Position numbers: made by a program
Shown: piece by piece, positions 12,001 to 18,000 of the stretch
Layout of the letters: every line of letters begins with the position of its first letter
How positions within the stretch are numbered: position 1 is the first letter of the stretch
Assembly (NCBI GenBank): GCA_037442925.1
Contig: JBBIPG010000042.1
Span: 1 to 19,867 of the forward strand
Reading direction: 5' to 3'
Source of the DNA: Candidatus Fraserbacteria bacterium
GTDB lineage: Bacteria > Bipolaricaulota > Bipolaricaulia > RBG-16-55-9
DNA: 19,867 nt

Positions 12001-15000
12001 CGATGGTTGCTAAGGCGTACCAGACATACCAACTGTTCATACAGTCACCTCGCCCTTATCTGGCGAATCATGCCCTTCGGTCAGACTCTATCTCGATTAT
12101 ACGTGCCTGTCACCTCCAGTCCTAATCGCAAATCAGTTGGAAGGTGTCGAAGGCTTGACTATGATTGTGTAAAGTGGCGTAATCAGCGCTAAGGACAGCG
12201 GGCCTTCCAAGGGATTCGCTTCACTCCGAAGATTGTAGGGGTTTATGATTCCGAAGGGCACGAGGAGATGGCTGCCAGGTTCCTGCGGTGCGATGAGAGA
12301 CGCTGGTATATCCGCTTCTTGATCGCAGGAGAGCCTCAAGTGCGCTAGCGGCTGCTGGTTGCCCACTTCGATAGGAAGCTGCAACCCGTCTAGGATTGAC
12401 ATGGCAATATAATCCCTATCCCCACCTCCTGGAATGCAGGGAGCTCGCACCACTAGGTAATAGTCTAGACGCTGACCGGGTAGGAGTTCTACCTGCCAGT
12501 TATCTATTTGCTGGTCGAGCGGATTGGGCACAAGGCTTAGAAAGATCCCATCCCTCAGGTTGCTGTCTGACGGGAGCATTGTCCCCCTTCGAAACACGGA
12601 ATCAGGCGGCCTGAGCGGCGACACCTTAGGCGGTTCTCCATTCCCTACTTGAATACTCATTTCCACGTATAGAGTCACGGTCCGGGGGATGGGGGGCGTC
12701 TCATGGACGCCGATAAGCACAAGAGATATGTTATTGAGCCCAGAAGGGAGAGGAGGGATCTCATCTGGAAGACGTGAGCTTGGCAAAGCACCATCATCTC
12801 GGGGTACTGATAGCCGATGTACGATGTCCTCCTTCCCCTCCAAGACAAAAGGCCGCTGGAGGCCGTAGTTGAGCATGAGAAGCGTGAGGGTTGTCTGACT
12901 TGTGCCATTGATCACCCCTAGAAAAAATGATAGGGATTGATTCGGCTTTGCTCGTACGAAATCGCGTGACGGTATTTGGAGCCTATCCAACTCCTGAGCC
13001 GCCTGCTGATTACCAAAGGAATTGGCAGCGCAAGAGAGTTCGATCAGCTTTTTAGTCAGTTGTACATCCTCACCGAAGGCAATGAAACATAAGTAGCTAT
13101 TAATCTTCTGCGGTTGAGCCCGAGGGCTTAGACTCACGCAGGTCAAAGTTGTGAACAGAGCAAGGAGCGTGAACCGTCGGATCAGACTGCCATTCATAGC
13201 TAGCAATTGAAGGTGATGAGGAAATCTCCAAAGGATGAGGTGGAACCGGAGCCTTTGATCGGATCAGAGAAGCTGTGGAAGCCGGTGCCTGTAGCATCGA
13301 GCATTGTACAACCCGTGATAGGGATCGTCTTGGTGGTTGAAAGCGATGTATAGCATGTCGTGGAGCTGGAATTATAGCCAGTTCGCCGACAAGAACCTGG
13401 TGTAGCTCCACTAAGAGTGAGGTTGCCTTCTACGAGAATGCGCGTGACTCTGCTGCTTGTCACTGAGGTATGTGTGCCATTGACGTCTATATTGGCGATT
13501 ATAGCAGGAGGGATGAGTCGGATAGAGTGGCTAATTGACCCACTGACAAATGTGTAACCATCTATGTCAGTTCCTCCTCCTATCCCAGGATCAAGCTCGG
13601 CTGTGGAGGAGGAGGTAGTACCATCTCCAAGGTAGATCTCACCTGCCGCATCGCCGTCCACACCAGGATCAAGGAAGACAAGTTGAGCCGCAAGCCCAGA
13701 GGAGTTGGGTTGTCTTGGATGAGTAAACACGAAGAAGACCACTATGCCTTGAGTGTCATCCCTTAGGAGTAGAGTTAGTCCTGGAACTAGGACACGACTC
13801 CGCTTCTTGTACTCCTCCTCCAGCCACCGAAAAGCCCCTTTCGCGAGCATCTCTTGGAGCAAGTCCTTTCGCTCTTGAGAGACGTTGACGGCTCGCATGA
13901 TCGCTCCCGGCTGATATGCCGCCAACATGATGCGACTCCGATCCCGAAACTGCCAGTAGGAGAGCAAGCGATCTCCAAAAGGCAAGAGCACTACCGTGCC
14001 TGGATGAGACCCTCGCTCGAAAGAGAAAGCTTGCGCTCTGTCTAGCTCCAACTGTTTCCCCTCAGACTCCAAGAGCGATCTGACTCCCTGCACCCTCCAA
14101 TCTCCGAACGCTTGCTCGAGAGCAGCCTGTCGCTCTGATCCCAATAGCTCTTCGTCAAACTGGAAGCCTTGAGTGGAGATACCCGGATCGGAGTCACCAT
14201 TCCTTGTGGTTGCCGCAGGAATATCCAATCCCTGCGTGCATCCGAAGAGCCCTAGCGACAGAGTGACAAGAAGAAGCCCCAATCCGACTTGCTCACCTCG
14301 AAATGTTGGAAACATGGTTGCTAACCCTCCCTGTTGAGAAGCTTCCCGGAAGGGGCAAATTGGAAACGAGTAAGGAGAGTGAAACAGGAAGCTATTGCAC
14401 GCCTTCATCTTCGGCAGCCTGGCGATCTCGGTGAGATCCATGGCTTTGCGCCCCCTCCTCGCGAAGGGTTTGCCCTTTCGGGTGTAAACTCATAGTAACA
14501 CATTCTTCCCTCATATGTCAAGGGGGGTAAAGGTTGCATCAGCAGAGGCTAAGTGAACAGGCTCTGAGCATATTCCCTGGCCCAATGATCAGCTTCCAGT
14601 ATGGATTTCAGATCCGGATGCTCAACGGGTCTATGAATAGTCAAAGTCTTTTCCAGAATCACAGCAATTTGCGTAAACGGGATTTCTCCATTCAAGAATC
14701 GCTCGACGGCTACCTCGTCCGCTGCATTCGCTGCCGCAGGGAACGTGCCTCCGTTGCGACCCGCCTCGACGACAAGCCGAAATGCCGGATACCGCCTTTC
14801 ATCCGACAAAGAAAACTCCAAGTGCAGCGAACGCCAGTCAAGTCTCTCATAGCAGTTCTGCGGCCGTTCTGGGTAGTTCAGGACATACTGAATGGGACCA
14901 CGCATATCTGGTGCACTCCAGTGAGCTAAGACGCTTCCATCGCACAGCTCGACCAGCCCATGCACAATGCTCTGCGGGTGAATCACAACATCAATCTGTT

Positions 15001-18000
15001 CAAACGCAAGACCAAAGAGCCAGTGGGCCTCGATCACCTCGAAGGCTTTATTGACAAGAGTGGCTGAATCAACTGTAATTCTCTTGCCCATCTGCCACGT
15101 CGGATGCTTGAGCACATCTTGAGGAGTCGCACGGGCAAGTTTTTCTAGCGGCCAATCCCGCAAGGCCCCTCCCGATGCTGTAAGTACGACCCGCGAGATC
15201 TCTTGGGGCGTTCGATTCTCCAGAAGCTGAAAGAGTGCGTTATGCTCGCTGTCTATGGGAATGAGCTTGGCACCACTTTGCTGAAGTGCTTTCTGGACGA
15301 GAGGGCCTCCCATCACAAGCGATTCTTTGTTCGCCAGTGCCACGTCAATCCCCGCTTCCAAGGCTGCCAGAGTCGGAATCAGCCCTACGGCCCCGACGAG
15401 CCCATTGACCACTAGATTAGCTCCTGACTCTGTAACGAGAGTTCTCAGGCCGTCCTCGCCGTGGGCGAACTCGATCTCTTTGCACGCAGAACCAAGTTGC
15501 TGCCGGAGAGCTTTAAGACCTAGCTCATTCTTAACTGATACCCACTTTGGTCGGAACTCACGAATCTGCTCACTCAGTAGGGAGATATCCTCGCCCGCGG
15601 CCAGGGCGATCACGTCAAAGCGGAGCTCGTCCTTATTGAAGAGACGAATCACGTCGAGCGTTTGCGTCCCGATGGAGCCGGTAGCACCGAGCACGCAGAC
15701 CCGTCTTGTTGTCATGGGGTCATCCGGCGTGGTTCAAAGAGAGGTGGGATTGGGAGCAGCTTGTGGTGCACTCTCCTTGATCAGCTGATCCAACTTCTCG
15801 CCTTCCAGAACTTCCACTTCCAAGAGCTTGTTCGCCAGTTTATGAAGGGCATCTTTGTGCTGACGCAGCAGGCTCTTCGCCCGCTCATAGCACTCCTCAA
15901 TGATCGCCTTGATCTCCTCATCGACCAGTGACGACATCTTCTCGCTGTGCTCGCGATTTAAGATCAAGTCCTGCCCGAGGAAGACGTTGCCGTCCTCGCG
16001 TCCCAGGCTGATGGGACCAACGCGATCGCTCATGCCGTAGCTCACGACCATGCGCTTGGCGATCTCGGTGGCTTGCTTGAGGTCGTTGTAGGCTCCTGTG
16101 GTGATCTCGCCGAAGCTGATCTCTTCCGCGGCCCGGCCGCCCAGCGTGCTCGTCAGCCGATCCAGCAACTCCTCCTTGGAGTAGAGATATTTGTCTTGAA
16201 GAGGAAACTGGAGTGTATATCCCAGTGCTTCCCCCCGAGGCACAATCGAAATGCGATGGACAGGATCTGCCTTCGGCAGCAACTTGCCCACTAACGCATG
16301 GCCCGCTTCATGATAGGCGATCTTGACTTTCTCTTCCTCGCTGATCAGTCGACCCTTGCGCTCGATGCCGGCGATGACCCGGTCGATCGCGTCCTCAAAA
16401 TCCTTCATGTCGATCGAGTTCTTGCCGCGTCGGGCGGCCAAAAGCGCCCCTTCATTGCACAAGTTCTCTAGATCCGCACCTACAAAGCCGGGCGTGCGGC
16501 GAGCCAGAATCGCCAGGTCCACATCGGGTGTCAGTTTCTTGTTCTGAACGTGCACCTTGAGTATGGCCTCTCTCCCTTTGATATCCGGCGGGGGGACCGT
16601 GATCTTTCGGTCGAAGCGCCCCGCTCTGAGCAGCGCGGGATCAAGGATGTCCGGGCGGTTGGTCGCGGCCAGAATGATCACGTGCTCGTTCTTCTCAAAG
16701 CCATCCATCTCCGAGAGGAGCTGATTGAGCGTCTGCTCGCGTTCGTCGTGACCGCCTCCGATGCCAGCGCCTCGCTTGCGCCCCACGGCATCGATCTCAT
16801 CGATGAAGACAATCGCACCCTTCCTGCCTTTGGTCTCGTCCTTGGCGCGCCGGAAGAGGTCGCGCACACGGGCGGCGCCCACGCCGACGAACATCTCGAC
16901 GAAGTCGCTGCCCGAAATGGAGAAGAACGGCACATCGGCCTCGCCCGCAATCGCCCGTGCCAAGAGCGTCTTGCCTGTCCCGGGCGCACCCACGAGCAAG
17001 ACGCCGCGCGGGATCTGAGCCCCCAGCCGCACGAATTTCTGCGGATCTTTCAGATATTCGACGATCTCTTGCACTTCTTCCTTCACTTCATCAATGCCCG
17101 CTACATCGGCAAACGTGACCTTTGAATACTCTTTATTGAAGACACGCGCTTGGCTACGGCCAAACGAGAAGGCACTGGTCCCTTCTCCCTGCATCCTCCG
17201 GATCATGAGATACCAGAGCATCCCGAAGAAGAGCAGGGGCAATAGATAAATCAGAATCGTCCAGAACATGGAAAAGTCCTGCTCCGGCTCCACCCTCACT
17301 GTGACGTCTGGCTGCTGCTTCAGTTGTTCGATCAACTGGGGATCATTGGGCCAGATGTTGGTGGAATACTTCTTACCCGGTTGGCCCTCCACGATCCAGG
17401 TGATCTGAGATCCTCGCAGGATGACCTCTTTGACACGATCCGCTTGAACGTCTTGGAGGAAATCGCTGTAGGTCTTGTTTTCTCCTGGAGCTGGAGTACG
17501 AAGCGACTGAAAGAGCACAACGACAAAGACGCCTGCAATGATCAAAAGCACAATGGTTCGGAAATTGCGACTCCGGCGACGTTGCTCTTCTTCGGGATTG
17601 AACTTGCCATTCACTGCGAACGATCCTCTTCCTTTCGTCCACCCTCATTGTATCCGAAATCATCTCTCTGATCCAGGCAAGCGGCGCAACGCCGAGAAGA
17701 CTCTCTCGACGATCTCCAGACCCGCTCGCCGCTGCGCCTCTTGCGTCTGAGCCCCGATGTGAGGTGTGAGAACGACGCGCGGATGCTCGATCAATCGTGC
17801 ATCGCGGAAGACATCGGCGGCGTAGCCTGAGAGCCTCCCTCTCTCCAGCGCAGCTAGAACGGCCGCCTCATCGACGACCTCCGCCCGTGCTGTATTCACA
17901 ACCACAGCGGACGGTTTCACATGATTGAGCACCTCAGCATCCAACAAGTGTCGTGTTTGATGGTTGAGCGGCACGTGCAGTGAGACCACGTCGCTCTCTC

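Follow-up and report, generated by a model that had tools for sequence, protein, structure and literature searches.

Entries into the MEP pathway without DXS

MEP isoprenoid pathways without DXP synthase (DXS) are already published, including one in a Bipolaricaulis species; a replacement enzyme is not. Marshall et al. 2023 (PMC10663253) list 181 'candidate species lacking Dxs', Ca. Bipolaricaulis anaerobius among them, name no enzyme for 172 of the 181 and state that such an enzyme 'should be sought'. A Rhodothermus model likewise has an MEP entry step without a gene. How carbon enters the pathway without DXS is thus a stated open question, and the genomes described here enlarge it, so that it now takes in a whole phylum together with 73 of the 151 Dehalococcoidia sampled. 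These genomes resemble the species of Marshall et al. in having an MEP pathway complete except for DXS and no mevalonate pathway. Whereas those species are scattered, here all 184 phylum genomes and about half of the Dehalococcoidia sample are affected, and a candidate gene can be named.

Two described systems make DXP in other ways. The MTA-isoprenoid shunt of Rhodospirillum rubrum combines a RuBisCO-like isomerase with a cupin methylsulfurylase, giving a thiamine-independent entry from a pentose phosphate skeleton, as we propose below for YjbQ. In E. coli, dxs is suppressed by mutant AceE, mutant RibB or overexpressed YajO, and the RibB/YajO route begins at ribulose-5-phosphate, again as in the YjbQ proposal. 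These suppressors are laboratory mutations, however, whereas the phylum has an ordinary RibB and a patchy distribution of aldo-keto reductases. The candidate belongs to the YjbQ/UPF0047 family (PF01894, TIGR00149; PDB 2P6C, 1VE0), and a 2026 preprint describes yjbQ as of 'no clear function'. Titles and abstracts, subscription journals excluded, showed nothing linking YjbQ to DXP or naming an entry enzyme of the Bipolaricaulota.

The dxr locus and the pathway in the phylum

The window, the whole 19,867-nucleotide stretch analysed here (contig JBBIPG010000042.1 of a Candidatus Fraserbacteria bacterium), carries dxr at 14549..15715 on the minus strand, where the earlier note had placed it. The intact open reading frame encodes a Class I DXR of 388 amino acids, which scores 451.2 bits on TIGR00243 (Dxr) against a curated cut-off of 315.7 and aligns over its full length with solved DXRs. 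Residues D155, S156, E157, S181, H204, W207, M209, S217, N222, K223, E226, H252 and M271 are invariant in all 31 aligned phylum DXRs, and the metal, phosphate and loop residues (DSE, E226, the H/W/M loop and S-N-K) are all kept. Judged by these residues the active site is normal, and NADPH-dependent conversion of DXP to MEP is predicted. Directly upstream on the same strand lies ftsH (15734..17614; TIGR01241, 823 bits against a cut-off of 600), which is genomic context of dxr outside the MEP pathway; of the 30 loci compared, 28 have an ftsH match no more than 1.5 kb from dxr, and 29 come from the window's own order.

We sampled 184 genomes of the phylum from 11 families (f1 to f11), 74 of them at least 90% complete (near-complete below); two, G005 and G006, are closed, with 96-99% completeness. 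DXS did not exceed its cut-off in any of the 184, the same search being positive in 10 of 14 control genomes. In the window's genome this held even at E<=1, where the best matches were split transketolase and the E1 alpha and beta subunits, and at that threshold this genome, G005 and G006 returned transketolase, E1 and oxidoreductase pieces only. The best values in the closed genomes were 1.4e-11 in G005 and 2.1e-13 in G006, in agreement with the earlier note, which had seen no match at 1e-20. Their weak matches of 700 residues are ordinary full-length transketolases (854 bits on TIGR00232 for that of G005, cut-off 682), and a dxs-sized gene of 1.9 kb between ispG and ispH is a squalene-hopene cyclase. 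DXR was found in 178 of the same 184 genomes (97%) and in 71 of 71 high-quality ones, extending the 39 of 41 first reported, so the miss of DXS in all 184 is not attributable to incompleteness.

The later enzymes are equally well kept. The 74 near-complete genomes hold IspF in 73, IspG in 72 and IspH in 72, and IspD and IspE are present in both genomes examined, those of the window and G005. The earlier note was right about the presence of these genes, with lower figures (82, 70 and 84% for IspF, IspG and IspH) that presumably included incomplete genomes. HMG-CoA reductase, for the mevalonate pathway, and RuBisCO-like protein were each found in 0 of 74 near-complete genomes and in 5 of 14 controls, again as had been claimed. 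MtnA, of the MTA-isoprenoid shunt, was seen in none of four phylum genomes, two of them closed, and the window's genome was judged by a motif scan only; the phylum is in these respects unlike R. rubrum. The evidence supports an MEP pathway running from DXR through IspH in the absence of DXS, the mevalonate route and the RuBisCO-like shunt, and DXP must therefore come from another source. DXS is absent throughout the 11 families, and the simplest reading, drawn from this spread over families rather than from a rooted phylum tree, is an ancestral absence.

The neighbours of dxr, ispD, ispF, ispA, tlyA and uppS in the window's genome and its relatives include no candidate entry enzyme. Upstream of ftsH, a short SerA-like 2-hydroxyacid dehydrogenase (17660..18568, minus strand; best NCBIfam match PGDH, below cut-off) was considered as a reductase partner and found no support; it is present in one copy each in the window's genome and G005. 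In the list of genes common to these two genomes, the G005 copy comes after a PLP aminotransferase. The two share 595 proteins, part of which we screened by eye on their first residues and 20 with Pfam, a coverage at which a phylum-wide candidate may be missed. A U32-like orphan from this shared set (71% conserved) was set aside as it occurs in only 36 of 74 genomes. Motif scans failed to recover genes known to be there (UppS and Kbl in G005), and blanks from these scans therefore weigh little.

YjbQ in isoprenoid operons

Of 20 ispG/ispH loci fetched from families f6-f11, 19 have yjbQ immediately after ispH, and all 19 copies carry an insertion. This insertion-type YjbQ is a UPF0047 protein of about 150 residues with a 13-residue insert ending in CxNGHxHC, a motif kept in 119 of 120 close homologues. 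The candidate is well above the family cut-offs (PF01894, 126 bits against 27; TIGR00149, 114 against 67.75) and shares the fold of 2P6C (Z 13.6, rmsd 2.8 over 123 residues); a fold search returned YjbQ relatives only and gives no functional hint. It differs from plain YjbQ in the insertion, the motif and its place in isoprenoid operons and fusions, whereas in 29 of 30 loci the plain gene stands behind a fusA-like one, and its fusions are to RNase H. A plasmid search gave plain YjbQ only.

Going by match span, the insertion type is present in no fewer than 51 of the 74 near-complete genomes, and in at least 50 of the 56 from f6-f11 it lies beside ispH in a hopanoid operon. It is missing from the window's genome, which is also without the hopanoid operon, and from 17 of 18 near-complete genomes of the same order. 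A single ancestral replacement enzyme is therefore not established: the earlier note's view of an unknown entry ancestral to the phylum holds for the absence of DXS in 11 of 11 families, but not for one ancestral enzyme, the best candidate occurring in only 1 of 18 genomes of the window's order.

The same operon gene is found in the Dehalococcoidia, where dxs is variable. In a sample of 151 genomes, insertion-type YjbQ is carried by 50 of 73 without DXS and by 2 of 78 with it, a correlation whose Fisher P is overstated since the genomes are kin; G239 and G293 carry both. Among 46 genomes with a hopene cyclase (SHC) the counts are 21 of 23 without DXS and 0 of 23 with it, and among the 105 without a cyclase 29 of 50 and 2 of 55. 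The split is thus seen on both sides, and hopanoids do not explain it. In 17 of the 23 genomes with both DXS and SHC, dxs is found some 6 kb ahead of shc. Six of 20 chosen comparison clusters were taken in; all five fetched clusters with DXS read dxs-polyprenyl synthase-hpnH-...-shc and lack yjbQ. The order in three clusters without DXS is ispH-yjbQ-polyprenyl synthase-hpnH. Across 80 yjbQ loci there was no DXS-length match and one weak transketolase-C match. A dehydrogenase-kinase-aldolase block after SAR202-type hopanoid operons was rejected as a candidate, being present also in the DXS-bearing cluster L352.

The DXS-less Dehalococcoidia appear to be MEP users, since those tested have DXR (10 of 10, in a test that took in 6 of the 73 sample genomes) and IspG (5 of 5) and lack HMG-CoA reductase (0 of 5); RuBisCO-like protein was also found in 0 of 5. 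DXR was present, too, in 5 of 5 tested genomes from the 23 of 73 that lack insertion-type YjbQ. Together with the window's order these show that insertion-type YjbQ is not required for life without DXS. In a tree of 39 of the 75 cyclases, the yjbQ clusters are spread over three or more supported clades and the dxs clusters over three places; its backbone is without resolution and the genomes are kin, so there may have been only a few independent swaps.

A matching pattern was seen around genes for IPP isomerase. Eighty metagenome loci included 8 with yjbQ and no DXS (one weak match was E1-beta) and 3 in which a DXS match adjoins the isomerase and yjbQ is absent. Among the best 120 of 995 longer YjbQ homologues, 116 are fused to isoprenoid enzymes: type 2 IPP isomerase (77), cis-prenyltransferase (19), IspH (11), hopene cyclase (7), squalene synthase (1) and terpene synthase (1). 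The isomerase fusions do not retain the first Cys of CxNGHxHC. The plain YjbQ control gave 0 of 103 with an isoprenoid family and 69 of 103 with RNase H.

Candidate sources of DXP

The complementary distribution and shared operon position of dxs and yjbQ are what replacement of DXS by YjbQ would produce. YjbQ in every DXS-less genome would also be expected, and is not found. We give about an even chance to the view that in f6-f11 and the DXS-less Dehalococcoidia the supply of DXP depends on insertion-type YjbQ, which would have displaced dxs non-orthologously inside isoprenoid operons. A broader proposal, which we hold tentatively, is that insertion-type YjbQ is a small thiamine-independent enzyme making DXP from pentose phosphate without a RuBisCO-like partner. 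Such a native, CO2-conserving MEP entry would serve most Bipolaricaulota as well as many Dehalococcoidia of SAR202 type, would extend to several other phyla, and would give UPF0047 its first physiological function. Terpenoid engineers would gain an entry possibly avoiding the CO2 loss and feedback control of DXS, and the interpretation of hopanoid carbon isotopes in these lineages may be affected. In any case the missing first step now has a candidate that can be tested, a gene of about 150 residues in the dxs position of isoprenoid operons.

The exact chemistry is a more doubtful matter. A thiamine-independent C1-deoxygenation could act on ribulose-5-phosphate or xylulose-5-phosphate; the window's genome and G005 both have the non-oxidative pentose phosphate enzymes that would provide these substrates. 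An enediol would form and lose the C1 hydroxyl to give 1-deoxy-2,3-pentodiulose-5-phosphate; two electrons from the conserved cysteine(s), or from a separate reductase, would then reduce C3 and yield DXP. No feeder or reductase for this route was found, with MtnA absent from 4 of 4 phylum genomes and aldo-keto reductase from 3 of 5. In the window's own order a smaller demand would probably be met by a weaker route, either a side activity of transketolase or E1 or plain YjbQ.

It is possible, at somewhat lower probability than the broader YjbQ proposal, that housekeeping thiamine enzymes, whether transketolase (split or full-length) or E1 alpha/beta, slowly join pyruvate with glyceraldehyde-3-phosphate and make DXP as a by-product, sufficient for slow growers; the window's own order is where this is most plausible. 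Matches of transketolase or E1 type occur in 162 of 184 phylum genomes, and wild-type split and full-length transketolases use pyruvate at low yield (PMC13663882; bioRxiv 719906), so sequence alone does not settle whether they form DXP. Vitamins would make no demand on DXP, as PdxS is present and true ThiG absent (the ThiG Pfam matches are 60-residue cross-hits, in the window's genome on pdxS). In the window's family the split transketolase carries Ala at the position equivalent to His473 in 6 of 6 genomes, and in one transketolase the changes His474Ser and His474Asn increased the use of pyruvate 6-fold and 3-fold; the His473 change brought no gain for the purified E. coli enzyme with glycolaldehyde (both bioRxiv 719906). 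However, the discriminating His100, which is Phe or Tyr in DXS (PMC13663882), is kept in all 12 phylum transketolases inspected (5 of 5 N-subunits of family f1, six other split N-subunits and the full-length enzyme of G005), none having the DXS-like Phe, Tyr or Leu; three aligned DXSs have Phe. The split genes sit with transaldolase in 19 of 30 loci, a pentose phosphate context, and E. coli dies without dxs despite its transketolase and E1 (PMC3424233). Hopanoid operons would moreover imply bulk isoprenoid demand. The earlier note had offered promiscuous TPP enzymes as a source; for G005 this fails for E1 alpha/beta, which that closed genome lacks, and the possibility is left to transketolase.

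Rather unlikely, to our mind, is that insertion-type YjbQ works as an enzyme or helper of isoprenoid metabolism at the level of IPP/DMAPP or HMBPP, handling diphosphates or partnering IspH, with its exclusion from dxs genomes due to lineage history and DXP coming from another, still unfound source. Every fusion partner does act at or after IspH, from IPP/DMAPP onward, and none ahead of DXR, and within 10 kb of yjbQ a polyprenyl synthase is present in 66 of 80 loci, ispH in 5 and dxr in none. The family label 'secondary thiamine-phosphate synthase' also points to diphosphate chemistry, a hint that reportedly goes back to Morett in 2008. This would leave unexplained the absence of YjbQ from every DXS-bearing cyclase carrier with the same operon, as well as the matching pattern around IPP isomerase genes, and fusions to six unrelated enzymes suit operon neighbours better than a single binding partner.

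Two further sources are very improbable. Formation of DXP from ribulose-5-phosphate by RibB or a YajO-like reductase, which RibB mutants and YajO achieve in E. coli, finds RibBA in the window's genome and G005, but in both RibB domains the positions corresponding to G108 and D113 (E. coli numbering) are unchanged and the alignment is that of ordinary enzymes, contrary to the role suggested in the earlier note, and no aldo-keto reductase is present in the window's genome, G005 or G085. Import of deoxyxylulose or DXP from the community would fit the small genomes and a FGGY-family kinase in G005, but the window's genome has no match to that kinase family, the phylum spans many habitats, and a member grown in pure culture on hydrocarbons carries the same yjbQ-ispH-shc cluster (bioRxiv 2025.11.21.689855).

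A MEP pathway from DXR onwards

A profile search for DXP synthase (DXS) found no match above cut-off in any of 184 Bipolaricaulota genomes, compared with 10 of 14 control genomes. The best matches in the phylum span the C-terminal half only and are split transketolase or E1 subunits; in the closed genomes G005 and G006 they proved to be full-length transketolase and were rejected as DXS. The next enzyme, DXR, is present in 178 of the 184 genomes, and among the 74 that are at least 90% complete we observed IspG and IspH in 72 each and IspF in 73. HMG-CoA reductase and RuBisCO-like proteins were found in none of these 74, and MtnA in none of four phylum genomes tested. 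The phylum therefore runs the steps from DXR to IspH intact, while DXS, the mevalonate pathway and the RuBisCO-like shunt are missing, as the earlier note had described. As PdxS is present in G005 and in the window's own genome, G000, and no true ThiG was found in five genomes checked, the two other usual DXP-consuming vitamin routes are also missing.

In the window, dxr (14549-15715, minus strand) encodes a class I DXR of 388 residues, which scores 451 bits against TIGR00243 (cut-off 315.7) and aligns over its full length with solved DXRs. From 36 loci entered we recovered 31 phylum DXRs (4 Dehalococcoidia loci were not picked up), and in the sequence alignment the metal, phosphate and loop residues are unchanged in all 31, giving no hint of an altered DXR substrate. 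The gene follows ftsH (the two together span 14549-17614), an arrangement shared by 28 of 30 loci examined, and stands apart from a uppS-cdsA-dxr-rseP block such as Dehalococcoidia keep. The remaining MEP genes of G000 are dispersed, with ispD on contig C56, ispE and ispH on C11, ispF on C14 and ispG on C46, and no candidate gene was found near ispA, tlyA or uppS.

A MEP pathway without DXS is already known as a kind. In the available sections of Marshall et al. 2023 (PMC10663253), 181 of 4,400 species have all MEP genes except dxs, including Ca. Bipolaricaulis anaerobius, and no enzyme is named for 172 of the 181. The DXP-forming step has no gene assigned in the accessible part of a Rhodothermus model (bioRxiv 2021.05.17.444423), and excerpts of a 2026 review (PMC13001223) do not mention Bipolaricaulota. 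The literature searched contained no report of phylum-wide DXS absence, nor of a replacement enzyme.

Insertion-type YjbQ in isoprenoid operons

Insertion-type YjbQ, a variant of UPF0047, is a member of isoprenoid operons, where it alternates with dxs. In the six phylum families outside the window's order, 20 ispG/ispH loci revealed an operon of polyprenyl synthase, hpnH, hpnG, ispG, shc, ispH, yjbQ and hpnC, D and E, with yjbQ following ispH in 19 of the 20, including two without shc. The YjbQ proteins of these operons carry a 13-residue insertion terminating in CxNGHxHC. Called by match span (372-375 bases versus 330-351 for other copies) among the matches listed, the insertion type occurs in at least 51 of 74 phylum genomes: 50 of the 56 from these six families and 1 of the 18 from the window's order. 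The earlier note had proposed an entry into the pathway ancestral to the phylum; the absence of DXS is probably ancestral, but this distribution does not establish a single ancestral replacement. An equivalent yjbQ/hopanoid cluster is carried by the cultured strain J31 (excerpt of bioRxiv 2025.11.21.689855). The structural model of the protein (pLDDT 75) resolves the insertion poorly, and in a fold search it matched YjbQ structures only.

The hopanoid operon (L080-L099) occurs in a largely anaerobic phylum and is absent from G000; it sits behind a two-component pair, and 17 of the 20 loci include a gene for squalene-hopene cyclase. A third YjbQ copy in G005 (L152:16161-16604) is degenerate, having lost the HTT and HxH motifs.

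GTDB genomes contain 447 relatives of the insertion-type subfamily, and the best 80 come mostly from Dehalococcoidia. Ten single-chromosome carriers contained no DXS, and in the five tested DXR and IspG are present and HMG-CoA reductase is missing; RuBisCO-like protein was likewise absent from five DXS-less Dehalococcoidia tested. We then sampled 151 Dehalococcoidia evenly; DXS is present in 78 and missing from 73. DXR occurs in all 10 DXS-less Dehalococcoidia tested, 6 of them among these 73. Insertion-type YjbQ, separated from other YjbQ by an E-value gap (1.8e-48 to 4.8e-31), was found in 50 of the 73 DXS-less genomes versus 2 of the 78 with DXS, which hold both together, although the sampled genomes are kin and the counts so not independent. 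Hopanoid synthesis is not the cause of this pattern, because the contrast persists among the 46 cyclase carriers (0 of 23 with DXS, 21 of 23 without) and among the 105 genomes without cyclase (2 of 55 versus 29 of 50). Where cyclase and DXS occur together, 17 of 23 genomes have dxs ~6 kb upstream of shc, and five such clusters run dxs, polyprenyl synthase, hpnH ... shc with no yjbQ; in three DXS-less clusters yjbQ immediately precedes polyprenyl synthase. In a FastTree cyclase tree (39 sequences, a random subsample of 75), whose backbone is unresolved, cyclases from yjbQ-bearing clusters form at least three supported clades, and those from dxs clusters fall at three positions. Of 80 Dehalococcoidia loci, 22-38 have, after the hopanoid operon, a block of genes for a dehydrogenase-like protein, an FGGY kinase, a class II aldolase, a small protein and an epimerase (L240:13488-18095; L352).

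Among the best 120 longer homologues of the insertion type, 116 are fused to isoprenoid enzymes, six kinds in all, from sources named as Dehalococcoidia, Dormibacteraeota, Eisenbacteria and Eremiobacteraeota. As a control, plain YjbQ from G000 gave no isoprenoid fusion in 103 longer homologues; 69 of these are fused to RNase H (P0241-P0314), one of them named Armatimonadetes. Around type 2 IPP isomerase at 80 metagenome loci, yjbQ occurs without DXS in 8 and a DXS match without yjbQ in 3, counts that describe the locus only, as DXS may exist elsewhere in those genomes.

We suggest that insertion-type YjbQ is a candidate that may supply DXP, a small and directly testable one for a question already open in print. 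The chemistry could be C1 elimination on a pentulose-5-phosphate, then C3 reduction, a guess based on the ribulose-5-phosphate routes of E. coli, the pentose phosphate enzymes common to G000 and G005, and the conserved histidines and cysteine.

Other possible sources of DXP

Several observations weigh against this role. Every fusion partner of insertion-type YjbQ acts at IPP/DMAPP or later, and 23 DXS-less Dehalococcoidia lack the insertion type, with DXR in all five of those tested. G000 itself has plain YjbQ only.

For G000, synthesis of DXP by transketolase or E1 thiamine enzymes is a fair rival. Wild-type transketolases, whether split or full-length, accept pyruvate weakly (PMC13663882, in part). 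E1 alpha/beta sets are present in G000, but G005 has none, and His100 is kept in all 12 phylum transketolases inspected, where DXS has Phe. In 6 of 6 family f1 genomes (G000 C9:4029-6671; L357-L361) the split transketolase carries Ala in place of the residue equivalent to His473, a position occupied by His in DXS itself and by Gln in human-type transketolases. Substitution at this position increased the use of pyruvate by one transketolase, with no clear gain for the E. coli enzyme (bioRxiv 719906, in part).

Plain YjbQ is at most a weak candidate, since YjbQ of any type, present in 72 of 74 phylum genomes, also occurs in 10 of the 14 control genomes, archaea among them. In Dehalococcoidia any type occurs in 70 of 73 DXS-less versus 49 of 78 DXS-bearing genomes. 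A fusA-like gene precedes plain yjbQ in 29 of 30 loci, and the loci and fusions examined gave no isoprenoid link. A route through RibB or an aldo-keto reductase appears unlikely, as RibB is ordinary at the suppressor positions (from excerpts of PMC3424233) and aldo-keto reductases occur in 2 of 5 genomes checked.

Neighbouring and orphan genes

Between dxr and a cytochrome c gene lie three ORFs without NCBIfam match (11231-14441), which look like a recent insertion because in the close relatives G104 and G103 dxr directly adjoins the cytochrome c gene. Further downstream of dxr (7987-11188) are genes for a heme-c protein, an Rrf2 regulator and ApbC/Mrp together with SUF-associated genes, placing Fe-S supply near a gene of a pathway with two Fe-S enzymes. 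A U32-like orphan (G000 C16:4524-5465; L210-L239), with ~71% identity across families and present in 36 of 74 genomes, had no match in Pfam, NCBIfam or PDB; in G000 it sits between fhs and panB. The window also contains two small gene pairs (2474-3919), one that looks like a small protein plus clan AA aspartic protease, and the other resembling a HicB/HicA-type pair.
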